Assembly (NCBI GenBank): GCA_910577515.1
Contig: CAJTLW010000006.1
Span: 46,799 to 110,798 of the forward strand
Source of the DNA: an uncultured Vampirovibrio sp.
GTDB taxonomy: Bacteria > Cyanobacteriota > Vampirovibrionia > Gastranaerophilales > Gastranaerophilaceae
Direction of reading: 5' to 3'
Length of the DNA stretch: 64,000 bases
Part shown: positions 24,376-37,086 of the stretch, piece by piece
How positions within the stretch are numbered: the first letter of the stretch is position 1
How the letters are laid out: every line of letters begins with the position of its first letter
The notes under the pieces: model-generated
Told to the model about the DNA's origin: nothing
Databases searched by the model: none
Seen by the model: only the letters and a program-made list of their open reading frames with translations
Position numbers and translations under genes: made by a program

Positions 24376-25677
24376 ATGAATCAGTTATATGATCCTAAAA
24401 ACGCGTACAAGCCGGCAATAAAACCGGTGAGGAGGAGAACTTCAAATCAAACTGTAACAGGAAGCTTCTTTAAGTCTTTCTTTGGAAGCCTTCTAATCCT
24501 TTCTGTTATTGCTATTGTTTTATACAGAGCTGAAGTTATAAACTTTATAGGAGATGTTGGTACCTTTACACAACAGGTTACAGACCCGGATAAAAGGGTT
24601 GAATTTTCTCTGCCGTTTTCCCCAAAGAGACAAAATATTCTTGTTATGGGCGTAGATGCCGTTTCAAACGAAGGCGGAGACCCATTTAAAGGAAACCGTT
24701 CTGACGCTATGCTTCTTGTAAGTATTGCCCCGCATGGAAAAAATGTTAATGTAATTTCAATTCCAAGAGACAGCAAAGTATACATTGCAGACAGAACAAA
24801 ACCTGATAAAATCAACCACGCTTTTGCGTACGGCGGAATAAATTTAACCGTTAAAACCGTTGAAGAAACCTTCGGAGTTAGGGTTGACCATTATATAGTT
24901 CTATCAAACCAGGGGCTTGTTAAATTTATAGATACCATAGGCGGCCTCCCGATTTATATTGAAAAAGATATGTATTATAACGATATAAGCGGAGATTTAC
25001 ATATTAATTTACCTAAAGGAGACAGGGTTTTAACAGGTAAAGAAGCCGAAGGTTATATGCGCTTTAGAAAAGATGCACTTGGTGACATCGGAAGAATTCG
25101 CCGCCAGCAATGGTTTTTTAACGCTCTCGGTGCAAGAATGAAAGACTCGCAAGTGTTGGTTAAAATCCCTGAAGTTTTAAAGGTAATGCCAAAGTATATT
25201 TTAACAGACCTTTCTGTCTATGAATTATCCCAATATGCAGCCTTAGCTAAAAATATTGATATGGCAACCGTTCAGGTTGCAACATTGCCGGGGTCTCCAT
25301 CACAAAGAGGAAGTATCAGCTATTGGATTTTAGACCCTGAAAAAACTCAGGATATAATTAACAGGCTCGTTTACAGAGATAAACCAAAAGCCTTAAACGG
25401 CCCTGTTTCTGTAGGTATTTTATACACACCGGATATGCAAACTAAAGCTGAAGATTTAAAACAGGCGCTTGAAAATAACGGTTTAAATGTAAATATGAAA
25501 TCGGCCGCAAAATTAGGTCACGACCATATTGCTATTCACAATCTTGATTTGCCTACAGAAGTTATCGCAAGCCTTAAAAAACATATCCCCGATATGAAAA
25601 ACAAACAAACCGTTTATGACCCCATCGGCTTAAATAAAGCCGGAAGAGATTTCACCATCATCCTCGCCGGTTCTTAA
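24376..25677 (+). CDS. LytR-CpsA-Psr (LCP) family cell-envelope phosphotransferase
   Basis: N-terminal TM segment, then LCP blocks (ILVMGVD, RSDAMLLVSI, SIPRDS, INHAF) and a C-terminal LytR_C-like extension. Confidence 0.8.
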   Translation: MNQLYDPKNAYKPAIKPVRRRTSNQTVTGSFFKSFFGSLLILSVIAIVLYRAEVINFIGDVGTFTQQVTDPDKRVEFSLPFSPKRQNILVMGVDAVSNEGGDPFKGNRSDAMLLVSIAPHGKNVNVISIPRDSKVYIADRTKPDKINHAFAYGGINLTVKTVEETFGVRVDHYIVLSNQGLVKFIDTIGGLPIYIEKDMYYNDISGDLHINLPKGDRVLTGKEAEGYMRFRKDALGDIGRIRRQQWFFNALGARMKDSQVLVKIPEVLKVMPKYILTDLSVYELSQYAALAKNIDMATVQVATLPGSPSQRGSISYWILDPEKTQDIINRLVYRDKPKALNGPVSVGILYTPDMQTKAEDLKQALENNGLNVNMKSAAKLGHDHIAIHNLDLPTEVIASLKKHIPDMKNKQTVYDPIGLNKAGRDFTIILAGS

Positions 25678-25679
25678 AA

Positions 25680-25883
25680 TTAATCCGGTATATATTTGAA
25701 AATATCGTTGGTATCACATTCAAGTGCGTAGCATAATTTATTCAGCGTTTCTAAATCAATACGTGTATAGTTGCCTTTGTAGATTTTAAGAATTATATGA
25801 CTGTCAAGACCTGTTAATTTTACAATGTCGCGTCTATCCAGTTTCTTTTCACCTAAAATTTTTGCAAACCTGTTTTCTATCAT
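25680..25883 (-). CDS. Small XRE-family HTH transcriptional regulator
   Basis: 67 aa. The pattern FAKILGEKKLDRRDIVKLTGLDSHIILKIYKG...LETLNKLCYALECDTNDIFKY is Cro/C1-like. Confidence 0.75.
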   Translation of the reverse strand: MIENRFAKILGEKKLDRRDIVKLTGLDSHIILKIYKGNYTRIDLETLNKLCYALECDTNDIFKYIPD

Positions 25884-25983
25884 TTAATCATAATAATACC
25901 TGCGTAGCTATATATCTTATTTAGTAGTTTACATAACTAAACAGTATATTTACATACTATTTTTTTTAATATATTGTAATATT

Positions 25984-26300
25984 ATGAACAATCAATTAAA
26001 CATAAGAATAGAACTTGATGGCATATTAAATATAGACAGACGAAGAAAAAAATATGACAATACTGCACCCCAAAATAAAAATGCTTTAAAATTTATTGAA
26101 AAATTATCAAAAAAATTTAATGTAATTCTAAAAACAAAACATAATAAAATTTAGCTGCAAAATGGCTTGCGGATAATGATATGTCAACTCTAATCCCTTG
26201 CCTTTTAAATAAAGAAGAAACCTTTACTCTATATATTGATGCCAAATGTTTAAACAACTGCAAAGATTTTGATGAATTTTATAATGTGCTTATAAGTTAA
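25984..26300 (+). pseudogene. Frameshifted, degenerate HAD/NT5C-like phosphatase remnant
   Basis: ATG 25984 to TAG 26152-26154 encodes MNNQLNIRIELDGIL...FNVILKTKHNKI. The sequence continues in the -1 frame from 26148 to TAA 26298-26300 (NLAAKWLADNDM...YIDAKCLNN...). HAD-like spacing is present, but the catalytic Asp positions read ELDG and IDAK. Confidence 0.3.
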
Positions 26301-26325
26301 ACAGAGTGCATTTTAAGTCTATTAT

Positions 26326-26677
26326 CCCGTCATGCTGAACTATTTTCGGCATCTATCCGACATTAGATTTATGCAGAAGCTTAGATATTAAAAATTTATA
26401 GCAGTTTTAGCAACACTCATAGAATTTCTAAGCTTTTTGGTTTTTAGTTTAATAAGTTAACTAAAGTATGTATTTTCTTGTAGAAAATTTCTTTATAAAA
26501 AAAAGACCGTTAAAAATTCGCGTCGCAATATTAATTGTGAACTTCTTAGCTGGTTTTCGGCCGGGCGAATCCCCGTGTCTTTTTTTTATAAAGAAATTTT
26601 AGAAGAGAAAATCCAAAAAATAGCGAGGTTTTAATCCAATGCTAATTAGATGCCAAAACTAGTTCAGTATGACAGGG
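26326..26677. repeat. 352-nt nested-hairpin element R1 (MITE-like or large structured RNA)
   Basis: The closing helix pairs 26326-26369 with 26633-26677. Inside are hairpins at 26377-26436 and 26444-26466, and a long hairpin pairing 26471-26507 with 26577-26612 (24 perfect bp plus an extension) that caps a GC-richer core. Confidence 0.6.
26376..26434. repeat. 59-nt conserved module, copy 1
   Basis: GAAGCTTAGATATTAAAAATTTATAGCAGTTTTAGCAACACTCATAGAATTTCTAAGCT. About 51 of 59 positions match 29449-29507 (hand count, ungapped). Confidence 0.8.
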
Positions 26678-26880
26678 TTAAGTTTAAGATGACAAGTTTC
26701 TATTGGCAATGTTTTATTGGCTTTCAAGAGTTTTTACTTTAAGTTTACTACCGTCTGCCCCAAGGGAGATTTTCGCACCTGTTATCAATACAATACATCC
26801 TCCATCCGGTTTATTAATGGTGCTTAAAATTATCCTAAACGGTTGATTTTTAATTTTAAAAAATATAAGACAATAAGTTT

Positions 26881-27081
26881 ATGAACACAAACGAAAAATG
26901 TCTTTTAAATTATTTAGCTTGCCTGAACACAGCATCTGGTGCGGCAGAGCATCTTATGAAATTTCTAAATCTGCACAACAGGAAAATTGAATTTCATAAT
27001 TTAAACCCTATATTTGACATTATTGATGAAATGGAATTTTCAAACTATAATATAGCCTATGAACAAGAAAATTTGGGTTAA
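26881..27081 (+). CDS. Hypothetical small protein (doubtful)
   Basis: 66-aa ORF with no obvious SD. It overlaps the cyclase gene start by 23 nt. Confidence 0.3.
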   Translation: MNTNEKCLLNYLACLNTASGAAEHLMKFLNLHNRKIEFHNLNPIFDIIDEMEFSNYNIAYEQENLG

Positions 27082-28870
27082 AGTTTCTTATATTTTAGCA
27101 TCCCTGTTGGTTTTTGGGGTGTTTTTGTATTTAATTCAAATCCCTTCTGCAAAAGATTTTTTAACAAAAATTGAAAACACTACTTTTGATTTGAGGCAAA
27201 ATATCGTTTCAAAACATAAAAAAACATCCGATAAAATCGTGATTATCGATGTAAACGATGCAAGTTATGAATATATTGTGGATAAATATGGTAGCTGGCC
27301 TGCCCCAAGAGCTTTTTGGGCAGATTTAATCACAAACCTTGAGCCTGTTCATCCTGATATGATAATTTTTGATATGCTCTTTTTAAAAAAACATAAGGCA
27401 GACGGGGCTTCGGATTTTGAACTCATAAAAGCAGTAAACACCAATAAAAACGTTTACATTTCAATGAATTTGGATAATTACCCTCCTGAAGTCAGAATTC
27501 CGCCACAATTGCCGGATGCCTTAAAAAACACAATAGAAAATGATTTTTTGATAAAACAAAACCCTGATTTATCATATTCAAACTGCCGCCCTGTAATTGA
27601 TGAAATATTAAACGGCACAAAAAATATAGGTTTAATCAATGTTCAAAGAGATAAAGACGGCATTTTAAGAACTATGCCCCCGTTTTCATATTATAAAGGC
27701 GCTTATTATAAGCACCTTACAATCCTTGCAGGGCTTGATTATTTGAATATCGATAAAAATTCTTTCAAAATGAACCGCAACGGAAATATCGCGCTTGATA
27801 AAAAGCATACGCTCCCCTTAACAAAAGAAGGCAAAGTAATTTTAAATTGGTATGGCCCTGAATGGAGCTTTAATTATGTTCCTTTGTGGAGAACGGTGGA
27901 AGCCATCAAAAAGAACGACAGGAAATTTTTAGAAGATAATTTTAAAGATAAAATTGTATTCGTTGGCGTTACCGCAAACAGTCTTTCTGATATTAAAAGC
28001 ACCCCTGTTTCCTATATGTTCCCGGGCGTTGAAGTTCAGGCAACGTTTTTAAACAATCTTCTTGATAACAATTTTATTAAAAAAACGAGCGTATTTTTTG
28101 ATATATTAATTGCCCTTTTGCTTGCCGTATTAACGGGTTTTGGGGTTATGAATTTTAAAGCGCCGATGAAAGCTGTTTTATTGTTCTTCGGGCTTCAGGC
28201 GGCATATTTTGTAATCTCAATACTTCTTATGGGCTTTTTCAACATCTGGACAGGTTTAATTGCGCCTTTCGTATTGAGTATTTTAACCTTTATTGCAGCT
28301 TACGTTGTTAAATATTTATTAACATCGCGCGATTATGAACACACCTATAAGCTTGCTGTCACAGACGGTTTAACCGAAATGTTCAACCACAGATATTTTC
28401 AAGAACAAATGACCAATAATATAGGAAACGCAAAAAGGTATAATAGCGTATTCTCTTTAATTATGGTAGATATTGATTTCTTTAAAAAGTTTAATGATAC
28501 ATACGGACACCAATCAGGCGATGCTGTTTTAAGGCAGGTAGCCCAAACCATAAAAAGAAATATCCGCTCAACCGATATCCCCTGTAGATATGGCGGCGAA
28601 GAAATGTCTGTCATCTTAACAAACACAAACAAAGAAGATGCAGTTAAAACTGCAATTAAAATTTGCGAAGCGGTAAGAAACAAAGAATTTGAGCTTGCAA
28701 CCGGCGATTGGACACATGTTACAATAAGCCTTGGGGTTGCTGCAATGCCTGAAAACGGCGACACAACAGAAAAATTAATTGAATATGCCGATAAATGCTT
28801 ATACATAGCAAAAAGAAACGGCAGAAATCAAGTCGTATCCGAAGCCCCCGAAGACACTCCGACAGAGTAG
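27059..28870 (+). CDS. CHASE2-domain membrane diguanylate cyclase (GGDEF)
   Basis: N-terminal TM segment, a periplasmic CHASE2-like region, three TM segments, then a GGDEF domain with GGEEM at the active site and an RxxD I-site (RSTDIPCRYGGEEM). Confidence 0.85.
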   Translation: MNKKIWVKVSYILASLLVFGVFLYLIQIPSAKDFLTKIENTTFDLRQNIVSKHKKTSDKIVIIDVNDASYEYIVDKYGSWPAPRAFWADLITNLEPVHPDMIIFDMLFLKKHKADGASDFELIKAVNTNKNVYISMNLDNYPPEVRIPPQLPDALKNTIENDFLIKQNPDLSYSNCRPVIDEILNGTKNIGLINVQRDKDGILRTMPPFSYYKGAYYKHLTILAGLDYLNIDKNSFKMNRNGNIALDKKHTLPLTKEGKVILNWYGPEWSFNYVPLWRTVEAIKKNDRKFLEDNFKDKIVFVGVTANSLSDIKSTPVSYMFPGVEVQATFLNNLLDNNFIKKTSVFFDILIALLLAVLTGFGVMNFKAPMKAVLLFFGLQAAYFVISILLMGFFNIWTGLIAPFVLSILTFIAAYVVKYLLTSRDYEHTYKLAVTDGLTEMFNHRYFQEQMTNNIGNAKRYNSVFSLIMVDIDFFKKFNDTYGHQSGDAVLRQVAQTIKRNIRSTDIPCRYGGEEMSVILTNTNKEDAVKTAIKICEAVRNKEFELATGDWTHVTISLGVAAMPENGDTTEKLIEYADKCLYIAKRNGRNQVVSEAPEDTPTE

Positions 28871-28872
28871 AG

Positions 28873-29118
28873 TTATTTTCTTTTAACGGGAATTAAATCA
28901 TACCCCAAAGCATCTGCCAAAATGCAGGCTTCTTCGTATGTAAAAGTATTTCTGGTCAATTTACCTTGTAAAGATTGATAAGTATAGTTCTTATTCGTCT
29001 TATCAGATAAAATTCTGACAACATCCTCATATTTAATATCTTCGGAATTACAAAATGCTCTTACGTACTTTTTACTATTCATTCTGTAATAGTAAAATTG
29101 TTTGCAATTTTTAGCCAT
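28873..29118 (-). CDS. Small HTH protein (XRE-like), paralog of 33923..34177
   Basis: The C-terminal LTRNTFTYEEACILADALGYDLIPVKRK aligns with FSRKRIRFETVQEILDFLGYELQIVKKK of the paralog. An internal Met13 is an alternative start in both. Confidence 0.6.
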   Translation of the reverse strand: MAKNCKQFYYYRMNSKKYVRAFCNSEDIKYEDVVRILSDKTNKNYTYQSLQGKLTRNTFTYEEACILADALGYDLIPVKRK

Positions 29119-29137
29119 ATTTGATAATATTTATTCG

Positions 29138-29168
29138 TATACAAATAATTTTATTTATATACAAATAA
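29138..29168. promoter_or_regulatory. Direct-repeat candidate operator (TATACAAATAA x2, 20-nt period)
   Basis: Copies at 29138-29148 and 29158-29168, in the divergent intergenic region between 28873..29118 and 29204..29404. Confidence 0.4.
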
Positions 29169-29203
29169 AATAACTTTACAAAAAGATACAAAAGAGGTTT
29201 ATA

Positions 29204-29404
29204 ATGTCTGCAAAAATGTCAGATTTAGAAAAATTGGAAGAAATGGAATTTTATTTTACGGATTTGCTTGATTCGATAAGAGTTATAAAAAAATGCTTAA
29301 AGGAAAATTTCGACGGCGACATAAGCGAATATGTATGTAATGTACATAAAAAAGTAGATGCAATATATGAAATTCTTTACGCACAAAAGCCGTCAAAACG
29401 TTAA
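29204..29404 (+). CDS. Hypothetical small helical protein
   Basis: 66 aa. SD AGAGG lies about 7 nt upstream of the ATG, and the gene is divergent from the HTH gene. Confidence 0.5.
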   Translation: MSAKMSDLEKLEEMEFYFTDLLDSIRVIKKCLKENFDGDISEYVCNVHKKVDAIYEILYAQKPSKR

Positions 29405-29448
29405 ACTGCACGCTTGAAGCACAATTTGCTATATCTCTATTGTTTTTG

Positions 29449-29644
29449 GAAGCTTAGATATTTAAATTTATTGGCGGTTTTAGCAACGTTCATAGAATTT
29501 CTAAGCTCACTTTTTATTGTTCGCAAACTCGTTGGCATTTTAAGCTAAAGGAAATGCCAACTCAAACATGCTCACTTTATATGTTCGCTAACAAATTCTT
29601 ATTCTCTTATGCTTGACGCCAATAAATTTAAACATCCGAGCTTC
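29449..29644. repeat. 196-nt hairpin element R2 containing module copy 2
   Basis: The 28-nt arms 29449-29476 and 29617-29644 pair at 25 of 28 Watson-Crick positions. The apical 10-bp hairpin 29531-29561 is flanked by imperfect direct repeats at 29505-29528 and 29570-29592. Confidence 0.65.
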
Positions 29645-29762
29645 TTATCCATAGAACTCATTAAGCCGCAAATTTTTCCTGTGTCCTTTTTTATGAAATA
29701 ATTTTATGAAGGGAAAATCTAAAACCCCATAAACCGGCTACACAATTAAAAATCCTCAAAAG

Positions 29763-29791
29763 TTGCGCTAATTTTTTTTTAATAATATAAT
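29763..29791 (+). promoter_or_regulatory. Sigma-70-like promoter for ssb (TTGCGC-17 nt-TATAAT)
   Basis: TTGCGC at 29763-29768 and TATAAT at 29786-29791. Confidence 0.45.
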
Positions 29792-29824
29792 CATCCTTGA
29801 ATATTAAAAAGGAAGGCAAGAAAA

Positions 29825-30166
29825 ATGGCAAATTCAGTTGTTATAGTAGGGCGCGTAGGGCAAGACCCCGAAATGAAATATTATGACAGCGGAAAAATCA
29901 GAACCACTTTTTCTGTTGCCGTAAACCGCTGGGACTCAAGAACTAAAGAACAGGTTACAGACTGGTTTAATATTGAAGTTTGGGATAAACAGGCAGAAAT
30001 TGCAGGCGAATGGGTGAAAAAAGGAAGCCTTGTCGGTGTTGAAGGAAGAGTTGCTTCAAGCAAATGGCAAACTCCTGAAGGTGAAATGGCCGAAAGATTT
30101 TTAATAAGATGTTCAAATTTAAGACTTATGAACTCCAAAAAGGATGAAAACCAAGGGATTGCTTAG
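29825..30166 (+). CDS. ssb: Single-stranded DNA-binding protein (short form)
   Basis: OB-fold blocks NSVVIVGRVGQDPEMKY, TDWFNIEVWDKQAE and GSLVGVEGRV. Only 113 aa, ending ...KKDENQGIA. Confidence 0.85.
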   Translation: MANSVVIVGRVGQDPEMKYYDSGKIRTTFSVAVNRWDSRTKEQVTDWFNIEVWDKQAEIAGEWVKKGSLVGVEGRVASSKWQTPEGEMAERFLIRCSNLRLMNSKKDENQGIA

Positions 30167-34241: not shown

Positions 34242-36887
34242 ATGAATATGCAATTAAAAAATTATAATTTTAAAGCCGCCGCCTGTATATTGCCCAACAG
34301 GATAACCTCCTGTCATTGCAAACACATCCGGAAAAACGATGGTGCAGTAATTCGCCACATTCTGTCATTGCGAGGGACCGAAGGGAGCGAAGCAATCCGG
34401 AAGAAAAATAAATGCAACTGGATTGCCACAGTCACTTCGTTCCTTCGCAATGACATTCATATTCCTGCCTTTTCACTCGTTGAAATGCTTATGGCACTGC
34501 TTGTGGCATCATTGCTGCTTGCAGCCCTTGCCCCTGTCATGACTAAAAGATTATCGGGTGAAAACATTATGGTAGGAGCAGTATCAAAAAATAACGGAAA
34601 CGAAACCCATGGGGTTGAAATTATTGAATATGACACAATAAATGATTCTGATAAAAATTTTACTAAAAAAAGTTTTACAGTACCTCAGGGAGTTCATACT
34701 TTAAGTTTAATTATTCAAGCAGGCGGTGGAGGCGGAGCGGGAGCAACATCAGGATATACAAAATACAATCAGGTATTTGATACATCAACAAAAGCTTCTG
34801 ATTCAATTGTAATAGAAGGTGATTTAGTGGGTATTAAAAATGTAAGGGTGGATTTAACAGGTGGCGGCGGGGGCGGAGGAGGTGCCGTTGCTACTGTTAT
34901 AGATTGTAAAGAACCAAACAAACATAAGTATATTAATCCGACACAGGGAAATGGAAACCAACAGTGTGTTAATAAATTCAATGTAGGGGATGCAAACGGC
35001 CCTGCTATTGCAAGCGGAGCAAGAAAATGTACACAAGGTGTGGATACTCCAGAATGCAGGGAGTGTGGCGACAGCACAAAAGCAATTTATGGAAAATGCT
35101 ATTTTGTCGGAAATTACACAGATTGCAGCGAAGACCCTGCAGGCGGCTGGACAGGATGCAACAGAACAGGGCTTCAAAAGCCTATAGGTAAAACTTCCTG
35201 TGCAAATTATACAGGAGCCGGGCTTGCAAAGGGTAAATGGAGAATGCCCAAGGTTGCAGATGTTTCAAAATATAAAACATATATAAAACAGCTCAACTTT
35301 GGGCAAGGAGCAAACGGGCTTCAAGTATGTCAATTTGAAACAGAAGCAGCCTCGACAAATAAAATAGCATTGTGTACAGGTAATTCTCAAAAATGTTATG
35401 GGGTACCCCAAAACGATTGCGATATCCATGGCGTTCATTTGGATGAAGCAACAGGTGGCGTGTTTTATGGAACTGGCAGCGTTAATTCAGGTTGTAGCGC
35501 AGATTACTTAGGTTGCATAGAAAATGTTCAATCTGCCCGTTGCCTCACCACAGATAATGGTGCCTTCACCTTTGCTTACAAAACAGGCGGAGGCGGAGGA
35601 GCAGGCGCAAGAGTATATAACTACACTCTCCCTGAAACATACAATGGGAAAAAATTATTTGAAAAAGGAAACAGGATAAATATACAAAGGGGCGAAGCTG
35701 GTGCAGGAGGTGAAGCTGGTGTAAACGGAAGTGCAGGAACCCCAAGCTGCTTACAGGTACAGGATAGCGAAGGAAACGGTATATTCTTTTTCTGTGCAAT
35801 GGGAGGAAACTTTGGTAAAGCAGCAACAACATCAGCCTGTGGCACAGCAGGCGGTACCAATGCAACTTGTGCAATAGGAACAAATTCTACAGATTATACT
35901 GCCGTAAATTGTTCAAACTATGGAACAGTGGTTTCAAAAGGTGGAAGCAATGGAGTTTCAAAAACCGTTTCATACAATGAAACAGTAAACGGGGGAAATG
36001 GTGCAGCTTCAACATATAATACAAGCCTTGCAGGGGGAAGCGGAGGAAGCGGAATAGCAACATCTACTGCAACACAAAATTCAATAAACGGTAAATCTCC
36101 TTCAGTATCAGGAACAAACTATCCTTATGGTGCAGGAGGCGGAGGAGGAAGTGCAGGAAGAGGTGCAAATTCATCAGCTGTTTTAACAGGTAAAGGCGGA
36201 GGTGGATATATAGGATATGCAAAATTAACTTATGATGTTGAAAGAACAGGTGCTTCAGGGGGCGGTGGAGGTGGTGGTTCTATGGCAGCCATTGCATCGC
36301 TTGAAGTAGATGCAGGCAAAAGTTATGAAGTAATTGCAGGAAAAGGTGGTAAAGGTGGAAATGTAAATGCTGATGGGGAAGACGGGTATAAAAGCAGCTT
36401 TAAATATTCAAGTTCAAAGGTTATAGAAGCAAACCCGGGGCTTGGAGGAAAAACAGGTACCCATACAGATGTATATTCAATAGGAGGGCTTGCAGGAAAC
36501 GGAGGAAATAAGGTAAACCCCGGAGTTGGTTTTGGAATAACAATAAAAGAAGGGTTAAAAGGAACTAACGGATACAACTACGATAGTACAAAAACTAAAA
36601 AGAGTATGGGAGGTAATGGTGGTAAATCGGGAATTGGAACTGATGGCGGCTGTGGAGGGTTAAGTTCATATTATGAAACAAGCTCTTTTGTATCAAATAC
36701 TGACAAAAATGAATGTAAAATTACCAATATTAATGCAGAATCCGGTCTTTATCTTTTAAATACATTGTATATGGGGACAGACTATGGAAGAGCAGGCTCA
36801 GGCGGAGGAGGCGGAGGCTTTGAAAGTTTCTCCCTCTATGGCGTAGGCGGAAATGGAGGAAATGGATATGTATTCATTAAATGGTAA
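34242..36887 (+). CDS. Giant glycine-rich / cysteine-rich protein with prepilin-type N-terminal motif
   Basis: SD AAGGAG at 34236-34241, with ATGs at 34242 and 34248. The class III signal-like motif A|FSLVEMLMALLVASLLLAALAP has Glu at +5 (residues 76-98). Twelve or more Gly-run motifs are present, from FTVPQGVHTLSLIIQAGGGGGAG to GGGGGGFESFSLYGVGGNGGNGYVFIKW. A segment of about 220 aa holds more than 20 Cys. Confidence 0.7.
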   Translation: MNMQLKNYNFKAAACILPNRITSCHCKHIRKNDGAVIRHILSLRGTEGSEAIRKKNKCNWIATVTSFLRNDIHIPAFSLVEMLMALLVASLLLAALAPVMTKRLSGENIMVGAVSKNNGNETHGVEIIEYDTINDSDKNFTKKSFTVPQGVHTLSLIIQAGGGGGAGATSGYTKYNQVFDTSTKASDSIVIEGDLVGIKNVRVDLTGGGGGGGGAVATVIDCKEPNKHKYINPTQGNGNQQCVNKFNVGDANGPAIASGARKCTQGVDTPECRECGDSTKAIYGKCYFVGNYTDCSEDPAGGWTGCNRTGLQKPIGKTSCANYTGAGLAKGKWRMPKVADVSKYKTYIKQLNFGQGANGLQVCQFETEAASTNKIALCTGNSQKCYGVPQNDCDIHGVHLDEATGGVFYGTGSVNSGCSADYLGCIENVQSARCLTTDNGAFTFAYKTGGGGGAGARVYNYTLPETYNGKKLFEKGNRINIQRGEAGAGGEAGVNGSAGTPSCLQVQDSEGNGIFFFCAMGGNFGKAATTSACGTAGGTNATCAIGTNSTDYTAVNCSNYGTVVSKGGSNGVSKTVSYNETVNGGNGAASTYNTSLAGGSGGSGIATSTATQNSINGKSPSVSGTNYPYGAGGGGGSAGRGANSSAVLTGKGGGGYIGYAKLTYDVERTGASGGGGGGGSMAAIASLEVDAGKSYEVIAGKGGKGGNVNADGEDGYKSSFKYSSSKVIEANPGLGGKTGTHTDVYSIGGLAGNGGNKVNPGVGFGITIKEGLKGTNGYNYDSTKTKKSMGGNGGKSGIGTDGGCGGLSSYYETSSFVSNTDKNECKITNINAESGLYLLNTLYMGTDYGRAGSGGGGGGFESFSLYGVGGNGGNGYVFIKW
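34363..34455. repeat. Palindromic repeat TGTCATTGCGAG...GCAATCC...GGATTGC...TCGCAATGACA, copy A (inside the CDS leader)
   Basis: An imperfect hairpin of about 93 nt, with a partial extra half-copy at 34311-34331. It translates in frame as ...SLRGTEGSEAIRKKNKCNWIATVTSFLRND... Confidence 0.8.
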
Positions 36888-36989: not shown

Positions 36990-37086
36990 TGTCATTGCGA
37001 GTGTATGCAAAGCAATCCAGTAAAAATCATAATTAGTTGATTATGGCTGGATTGCCGCGGTCGTCTAAAACCCCCTCGCAATGACA
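36990..37086. repeat. Palindromic repeat, copy B
   Basis: TGTCATTGCGAG...AGCAATCCAG...CTGGATTGCC...CTCGCAATGACA, in the same orientation as copy A. Confidence 0.8.

Follow-up and report, generated by a model that had tools for sequence, protein, structure and literature searches.

Bacterial chromosomes carry various MITE-like (miniature inverted-repeat transposable element) and terminator-like palindromic repeats, such as the Correia elements of Neisseria, ERIC, RUP and BOX, many of which are found at the 3′ ends of genes. A further group is the superfamily of CGTC-tagged repetitive extragenic palindromes (REPs), which includes dRS3 from Neisseria as well as RPE-4 and RPE-6 from Rickettsia. 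Its members are described (Di Nocera, De Gregorio & Rocco 2013, PMC3733652) as having an unpaired CGTC or TGTC end tag, an 8–9-bp stem starting from A-T, a 4–5-nt loop and a short unpaired tail, and as being multi-copy within a genome, frequently in the form of inverted dimers separated by 20–100-bp spacers. Hairpin repeats have also been connected to the Ssn nucleases of CDD cd10448, where the flanking NTS/SRM repeats are cut as single-stranded DNA (ssDNA), a cleavage that modulates transformation; the association defining SRM and Ssn is a repeat that flanks the gene combined with co-occurrence of the two across genomes (Chenal et al. 2025, PMC11893778). Here, these systems are compared to a 352-nt, almost entirely self-complementary element at 26326–26677 of the window, the 64-kb stretch of DNA under analysis (C6:46799–110798; C with a number denotes a contig, G with a number a genome). 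The host genome (1.93 Mb, 34% G+C) is a metagenome-assembled genome of an uncultured Candidatus Gastranaerophilales (Melainabacteria) bacterium of the mouse gut, and was compared to relatives that are metagenome-assembled genomes of the same group, the closest ones likewise from mouse gut. With a probability of roughly three in four, we consider the element to be a mosaic of three independent small palindromic repeat families that have accumulated in a variable intergenic islet.

When compared to its own genome by BLAST, the element fell apart into three segments matching three separate sets of loci, and the same division was seen in the relatives. The BLASTN search that an earlier note, made from the DNA sequence, had called for thus splits the element into three dispersed repeat families (Table 1): H, whose units form the outer arms, B, of which a 5′ fragment is present, and L, the long hairpin. 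The same note had proposed a MITE with a second palindrome nested inside. Of this proposal, the nest of palindromes stands, as do the outer arms as inverted copies of a dispersed repeat, whereas the classical MITE and the count of two families do not, as three families are present. No direct repeat flanks the ends of the element as a target-site duplication. BLAST of the host genome and the 40 relatives did not turn up the complete unit a second time, and a distant-mode BLAST of phage and plasmid collections gave no match. A classical MITE was rejected on these points, as terminal inverted repeats are present but target-site duplications are missing and the whole unit is single-copy and absent from the 40 relatives. 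The region is an ordinary pile-up of repeats, to which the nested-palindrome MITE is the closest of the earlier readings.

Table 1 Positions in the window of the repeat segments that make up the 352-nt element, and of features in its surroundings
Feature	Position	Strand	Description
Variable islet enclosing the element	25678-26795	.	XRE gene, small remnant ORF, 352-nt mosaic, ~120 nt of further sequence
XRE gene	25680-25883	-	HTH_26
Left arm, H1 unit	26326-26369	+	CGTC tag 26328-26331, stem ATGCTGAA 26332-26339, loop CTATT, stem TTCGGCAT 26345-26352
B 5′ fragment (59-nt module)	26376-26436	+	left closing-stem arm and first ~30 nt of the core
Linker with TTTAGTT/AACTAAA hairpin	26437-26467	+	homologous to the linker before L in G003:C22
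L repeat	26468-26617	+	arms 26469-26507 and 26577-26615; apex 26508-26576 (GACCGTTAAAAATTCGCGTCG...GGGCGAATCCCCGTGTC) between A8 and T8 runs
Right arm, inverted H1-type unit	26633-26676	-	TGTC tag on the - strand (TGTCATACTGAACTAGTTTTGGCATCTAATTAGCAT), tag outward like the left arm
Second cluster (R2 of the earlier note)	29449-29724	+	full B 29449-29644, then 3′ half of L 29678-29724; 3′ of the 66-aa ORF 29204-29404

The layered self-complementarity that had first drawn attention to the region was borne out, with every described helix found in its place. The closing helix, put at about 34 bp, pairs 26326–26369 with 26633–26676, where 34 of the 44 positions form Watson-Crick pairs and 2 form G-T pairs. 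Enclosed by it, AAGCTTAGA (26377) pairs with TCTAAGCTT (26427) in the hairpin of the 59-nt module, TTTAGTT (26443) pairs with AACTAAA (26459) in the 7-bp hairpin, and the two arms of the long hairpin form 34/39 Watson-Crick pairs with an unbroken run of 24 bp. The apex of the latter is indeed richer in G+C than the arms (46% vs 19%) and includes the pairing of ATTCGC (26516) with GCGAAT (26565). It was likewise correct that no open reading frame (ORF) accounts for the region, the sole ORF of at least 40 aa inside it being a 44-aa frame in the AT-rich hairpin. The predicted minimum free energy was -113.8 kcal/mol for the + strand (z = -8.55) and -111.1 kcal/mol for the - strand (z = -10.84), and as 0/100 shuffles were as stable in either case, the structure is far beyond chance. 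Equal folding of both strands is the behavior expected of DNA palindromes, and the near-total self-complementarity follows from every piece being a palindrome and from the outermost pieces being inverted copies of one repeat.

These outermost pieces, which form the closing helix, are two inverted copies of the hairpin repeat CGTCATGCTGAAC..TTCAGCATC, each arm consisting of one CGTCATGCTGAAC-TTGT-TTCAGCATC copy and ~17–19 nt of conserved inner flank. In the left arm, the ATGCTGAA/TTCGGCAT stem comprises 7 Watson-Crick and 1 G-T pairs and is followed by CTA, and the 3′ part corresponds to ~17 nt of the inner flank conserved in the H family (TATCCGACATTAGATT). The canonical H1 unit is ATGCTGAA / CTTGT / TTCAGCAT, and the left arm fits the H consensus CGTCATGCTGAACTTGTTTCAGCATCTATCCAAYAT found in G003, G014, G024, G025, G027, G031, G035 and G037. 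Across 12 aligned H units the core GTCAT.CTGAA...TTC.GCATC was invariant, with the preceding base being C or T in all. H units were detected in 27 of 41 related genomes, reaching other families of the order, at 0–48 copies per genome and frequently at contig ends; a reversed-pattern control gave 0 matches. They usually take the form of a ~100-nt doublet with an inverted partner (H2), with the covarying stem GATCCYGAA..TTCRGGATGAC, and 46–89-nt doublets are present in the relatives. The host genome contains only ~4 H units, and the pair in the element lies 263 nt apart (321 nt start to start). A generic scan of the host genome revealed no further (C/T)GTCAT-tagged short-hairpin family, its matches being mostly chance ones in an A+T-rich genome.

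Judged by their sequence, the outer arms are additional members of the known CGTC-tagged REP superfamily. In common with its members, they have a (C/T)GTC tag, a stem of 8 bp that starts with AT, a loop of 5 nt and a short tail without pairing; they are intergenic, form inverted pairs capable of folding into one larger hairpin, and show covarying stem variants (GCTGAA, CCTGAA and TCTGAA). They differ in their 263-nt spacer, which is filled with other repeats instead of spanning the usual 20–100 nt, in their A+T-rich stems, and in their scarcity, as a host with ~4 units is not REP-rich. Furthermore, Melainabacteria (Gastranaerophilales) are not among the phyla named in the parts of the superfamily description considered here (PMC3733652).

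The 59-nt module was traced to the second family. Positions 26376–26434 are 86% identical to 29449–29507, the start of a 196-nt full B copy (29449–29644), and the match to the family stops at ~26436, with the AAGCTTAGA/TCTAAGCTT hairpin being internal to the fragment. The module is the truncated 5′ end of the ~200-nt repeat, a dead fragment that we infer to be inert. The B family was characterized from an alignment of 22 copies, drawn from 10 genomes of the genus (29449–29644 of the window and 21 copies in loci L169–L188 and L031). The copies share a constant core of 134–141 nt and an inner 7-bp hairpin with full covariation across the alignment, and are closed by a near-perfect stem of 25–33 bp (about 28) whose sequence is almost wholly different between copies, even within G009. 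No Rfam match was obtained for B. Such a variable closing stem is odd for a terminal inverted repeat (TIR) bound by a transposase; the pattern could reflect an RNA that has a processing stalk, or else insertion into palindromes that were already there. B is an undescribed family in which the combination of a conserved ~135-nt core and a hypervariable ~28-bp stem is unusual and merits an analysis of its own.

The third family, L, is ~147 nt long, and the copy in the element scores 142.9 bits with a covariance model built from 18 copies. The model detected six full copies in the host genome and found the repeat to be restricted to this genus among 60 sampled genera of the family, and BLAST gave 6–10 copies in each of G002, G003 and G009. 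Over 14 copies, 97.2% of cells were paired and 9 pairs displayed compensatory double-sided changes, which was reached by 0/500 shuffles (slid controls 44–56%). The apex sequence is well conserved, with no double-sided changes in the apex helix, and several conserved G-U pairs of this helix exist on the + strand only. A stop codon lies at most 90 nt upstream of each of the other five full copies in the host; two of these copies are between convergent genes and one is antisense to its upstream gene. The A8-GACCG...CGTGTC-T8 layout, with a structured G+C apex between an A-run and a T-run, would be compatible with L acting as a bidirectional transcription terminator or 3′-end stabilizer, and at this locus it could form a boundary between the XRE-controlled islet and the CHASE2-GGDEF operon downstream of it. 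L is an undescribed family of the genus that may behave like a portable terminator. Both L and B resemble the MITE-like and terminator-like palindromes (Correia, ERIC, RUP, BOX) in being lineage-specific, multi-copy intergenic hairpins of 150–200 nt, and L also in its location at gene 3′ ends, as is the case for many such repeats. In contrast to these, neither a cognate transposase nor a target-site duplication was found, and the closing stem of B is hypervariable, leaving it with no conserved TIR.

The locus was also compared between species. The element lies in a 1.2-kb gap with a LytR/LCP gene (24376–25677) on its 5′ side and a 66-aa ORF and a CHASE2-GGDEF gene (26881–28870) on its 3′ side. 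In G001 and G002, sequence matching the window from ~26796 (ATCCTCCAT...TTAAAATTATCCTAAACGGTTGATTTTTAATTT) follows within ~30 nt of the LCP stop codon, which makes these two genomes empty sites. G003 and G009 carry an islet at the same locus, with different HTH genes and a 66–75-aa ORF, that ends with L, the repeat beginning 10–20 nt after the stop of the small ORF; no H arms and no B fragment were found in these orthologous islets (G003:C9 and G009:C8). As L alone is present there, it is the sole positionally conserved part of the 352-nt unit. A paralog of the small G003/G009 ORF is found at 29204–29404 of the window, followed by a full B copy and half an L. The LytR/LCP to CHASE2-GGDEF interval is a hot spot for variable islets of an XRE gene plus cargo. 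The element was complete in all of four DNA runs, including ~99%-identity strain variants that differ inside it only twice (A>G at 26365 and one A fewer in the A8 run at 26497); neither a strain lacking the element nor any insertion polymorphism was seen among these runs.

The H units provide a link to a group of small nucleases. In G003:C54, an H(+)/H(-) pair encloses a 98-aa ORF, and an ORF of 95 aa that resembles it adjoins H units in G037; according to Pfam, the products of both have a GIY-YIG domain (E = 1e-17 and 8e-19). Five H(+)-GIY-YIG-H(-) cassettes were identified (G003:C54, G014:C15, G037:C28, G037:C41 and G031:C10), representing 4 genomes and 3 families, with a start-to-start spacing of 346–379 nt vs 321 nt in the element and with the tags of the arms pointing outward in both. 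Across the 41 genomes, H units were associated with this GIY-YIG gene, both by presence (odds ratio 14, Fisher p = 9e-4) and by rank correlation (Spearman rho 0.57), values that are not phylogeny-corrected. The gene is patchy, multi-copy and partly pseudogenised, with 6 of the 12 copies in G020 having in-frame stops. In this genome, which is from the same family, the 12 copies and 41 H units are spread over many contigs, and the pattern looks like a recent burst followed by decay of a hairpin-bounded nuclease element. No named relative of the small GIY-YIG protein was found in the PDB or NCBIfam, and literature searches returned nothing directly relevant on peptide-like translations of the repeats or on GIY-YIG mobile hairpin elements.

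Both the CGTC-tagged REPs and their link to small GIY-YIG (Ssn-like) genes are thus also present in Melainabacteria. The likeness to the Ssn/SRM system lies in the H units on both sides of a ~95-aa single-domain GIY-YIG gene in the five cassettes and in the co-occurrence of units and gene across genomes. By analogy to SsnA and NTS, the H hairpins would be recognised as folded ssDNA by the GIY-YIG nuclease of the cassettes, and are probably its targets in that form. The two units in the window differ in enclosing no nuclease gene, and the host genome does not encode the GIY-YIG subtype matching H units. Its single GIY-YIG gene (C2:151541–151828, 96 aa, Ssn-like) is flanked by another TGTC-tagged repeat, of the TGTCATTGCGAGG type. 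As the matching nuclease is absent and the host's own gene is accompanied by a different repeat, the arms of the element are most likely the inert remains of hairpins that an ssDNA nuclease would target. The flanks of the C2 gene were seen to be inverted TGTCATTGCGAGGGAGCAAAGCGACCGCAGCAATCCAG units, a second TGTC-tagged repeat type that also occurs at 34311–34455 and 36990–37086 of the window, inside and after a pilin-like gene.

Several observations weigh against a mosaic of independent repeats, or against parts of this interpretation. In G003:C22, which is non-syntenic, an H1 unit, a full B, a linker homologous to 26437–26467 and L follow one another in the same order as in the element; the BLAST match begins at query position 136 (26435 of the window), whereas most other L copies begin at 26462–26472. 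In G009:C30, a different L copy is followed 34 nt later by an inverted H1 unit, at the same distance as in the element. Since composite orders recur in these two places, the pieces were not placed entirely independently, and the whole 352-nt unit may have moved together. Either copying involves whole composite blocks, or sites next to these hairpins are preferred by H units when they insert. Given that the left part of the element has its order and linker in common with G003:C22, the mosaic probably derives from such a composite through a ~165-nt deletion within B. A further point concerns the nuclease analogy: the published degenerate SRM pattern HGTCWYN(0-2)YYVSBRHN(0-5)WNVSBRGN(0-2)RNCYNB (PMC11893778) matched neither of the arms, nor canonical H1/H2 or the repeat flanking the host nuclease gene, although it did match an NTS control. 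The units, whose stems are A+T-rich, thus differ from SRM in escaping its search pattern, and pattern-based surveys will undercount such units.

Another point is the role proposed for L, as a terminator-like function is suggested by position and shape only. L was not called in a scan for consensus terminators; its enclosed apex of ~60 nt makes for a loop far longer than the scan permits. The compensatory changes in L are equally compatible with a selected RNA structure. Moreover, two libraries labelled transcriptomic yielded contigs at a depth of 2–3 and without strand information, and in one of them contigs covering 26161–26311 and 26461–26612 were the sole coverage on a 5.2-kb stretch. As the neighboring genes are uncovered in that run, the region may be transcribed, which leaves room for a role at the RNA level.

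Among the alternatives to the repeat mosaic, the one that survives best is a non-autonomous mobile cassette comprising all 352 nt, a miniature of the GIY-YIG element that would keep its two terminal hairpins, carry the B fragment and L as cargo in the place of the nuclease gene, and be mobilized by the nuclease in trans. The geometry of its arms is that of the nuclease cassettes, the 321-nt spacing coming close to the range of the five cassettes, gene-less ~100-nt H1/H2 doublets are abundant in the relatives, as expected of miniatures, and some genomes, such as G020, have several copies of the nuclease gene that are in decay. The composite of the same order and linker at another locus in G003 points in the same direction. 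This composite however has no right arm, and both arms of the element are of the H1 type, unlike the common doublets of H1 and H2. The sister species already have L at the locus without any arms, and the absence of both a second complete copy and a target-site duplication speaks against movement as a unit. No degenerate GIY-YIG coding sequence was detected inside the element by tblastn with three GIY-YIG proteins at E-values up to 100. In addition, transposition by Ssn-type nucleases is undemonstrated, their published role being the ssDNA cleavage that modulates transformation (PMC11893778). Taken together, we regard the cassette as unlikely.

A wider version of the same idea is that the (C/T)GTC hairpin pairs in Gastranaerophilales are the ends of a mobile element with a 95-aa GIY-YIG protein as its sole gene product, and that the 352-nt unit is a non-autonomous derivative in which the nuclease gene has been swapped for non-coding cargo. 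This we hold to be quite unlikely. If true, Ssn-type nucleases would go beyond cutting and move any DNA located between two hairpins, and the "orphan" CGTC REP superfamily would gain a mobilizing enzyme, which would define a transposition system that belongs to none of the recognised transposase classes. The possible mobility of the hairpin-bounded GIY-YIG cassettes is, together with the odd B family, where the remaining interest lies.

A REP-associated tyrosine transposase (RAYT) was also considered as the mobilizer of the arms. REP/REPIN-RAYT systems are similar in that short hairpin repeats form inverted doublets that fold into a larger hairpin, and the host does encode a RAYT (C9:73430–74060; NF047646, 153.7 bits), flanked by inverted GTAGGTCAGGCATTGCCTGAC REPs. 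The flanks of the RAYTs of the host (G000), G002, G009 and G024 are however GTAG-tagged REPs of the GTAGGTCAGGC or GTAGGTTGG type, unlike the H sequence, and G014 and G035 contain many H units without any Y1 transposase (Y1_Tnp). As these four RAYTs are flanked by repeats of another sequence and H-rich genomes lack the transposase, RAYT was rejected as the partner of the H arms. The host RAYT appears to sit between the two halves of a longer open frame.

Returning to the RNA level, the region, or L with its flanks, could instead be a functional structured RNA, such as a cis-acting 3′ untranslated region or a regulatory RNA of the islet or of the GGDEF operon. The very strong fold z-score is in line with this, as are the 9 compensatory pairs and 97% pairing of L over 14 copies, its conserved apex sequence, the conserved apex-helix G-U pairs restricted to the + strand, and the transcriptomic-labelled contigs, one of which covers exactly L (26461–26612). 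Against this, both strands fold equally well, and the apex helix bearing the G-U pairs is without double-sided changes. Compensatory change in the inverted repeats of DNA can also arise from templated quasi-palindrome correction. The contigs are strandless and of depth 2–3, so that DNA carry-over is possible, and L is multi-copy, genus-restricted and located behind unrelated genes, once antisense to the upstream gene. The earlier suggestion of one large structured RNA was not upheld for the 352-nt unit, which is not conserved across species: G003 and G009 have only L, and G001 and G002 are empty. Nor did the Rfam search called for earlier bring any family near its gathering score; 25500–27500 and 29100–29900 gave only chance miRNA/snoRNA hairpins at permissive E-values, and the whole window gave no match at gathering thresholds. 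The best score was for a plant miRNA hairpin model (29.8 bits vs gathering 87). A functional structured RNA is therefore considered highly improbable.

That the element is a retron msr-msd, with the closing repeats as a1/a2, the short hairpins as msr and the long hairpin as msd, has next to no chance of being correct: the resemblance, raised in the earlier note, is one of formal layout (inverted repeats on either side, short hairpins and a single long one), whereas every segment is a dispersed multi-copy repeat with copies behind unrelated genes, the closing repeats belong to a family whose copies flank nuclease genes in other places, conservation of the unit is lacking, and no reverse transcriptase (RT) gene is adjacent. 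The absence of a nearby RT gene, already pointed out in the same note, holds for the entire window, and the genome search that it advised revealed a single RT, on another contig (C1:3566–4843, - strand). Its 426-aa frame was below every NCBIfam cut-off, including that of retron St85 (46.5 vs 235 bits) and that of its best match, group II (92 vs 300 bits). The C1 RT contains an IGNLTSQ motif, which we take to be typical of RTs from diversity-generating retroelements. A false lead is thereby removed at this locus, which is neither a retron nor a giant RNA, the fold being that of three stacked palindromic repeats.

Among the genes around the element, the XRE regulator reported before was confirmed by Pfam as a member of HTH_26 (E = 4e-15), whereas Pfam lent no support to the "HAD-like remnant" suggested before. 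The 603-aa downstream gene product is matched by GGDEF-type relatives in its C-terminal residues 406–598 throughout the genus, and an ortholog of the GGDEF gene was found in 13/13 genomes of the genus. The CHASE2-GGDEF gene has a variable islet on either side (25678–26795 and 28871–29790), each combining a small HTH gene in - orientation with cargo in + orientation. The 66–75-aa ORFs, found at 29204–29404 of the window and in the G003:C9 and G009:C8 islets, form a family (M..KM.DLEK.EE.EFY.TDLLDSI.VIKK.LK...) with no Pfam match; they are always divergent from a small HTH gene and have L or B repeats directly 3′, and might be carried as cargo by a small module of a mobile or toxin-antitoxin-like type.

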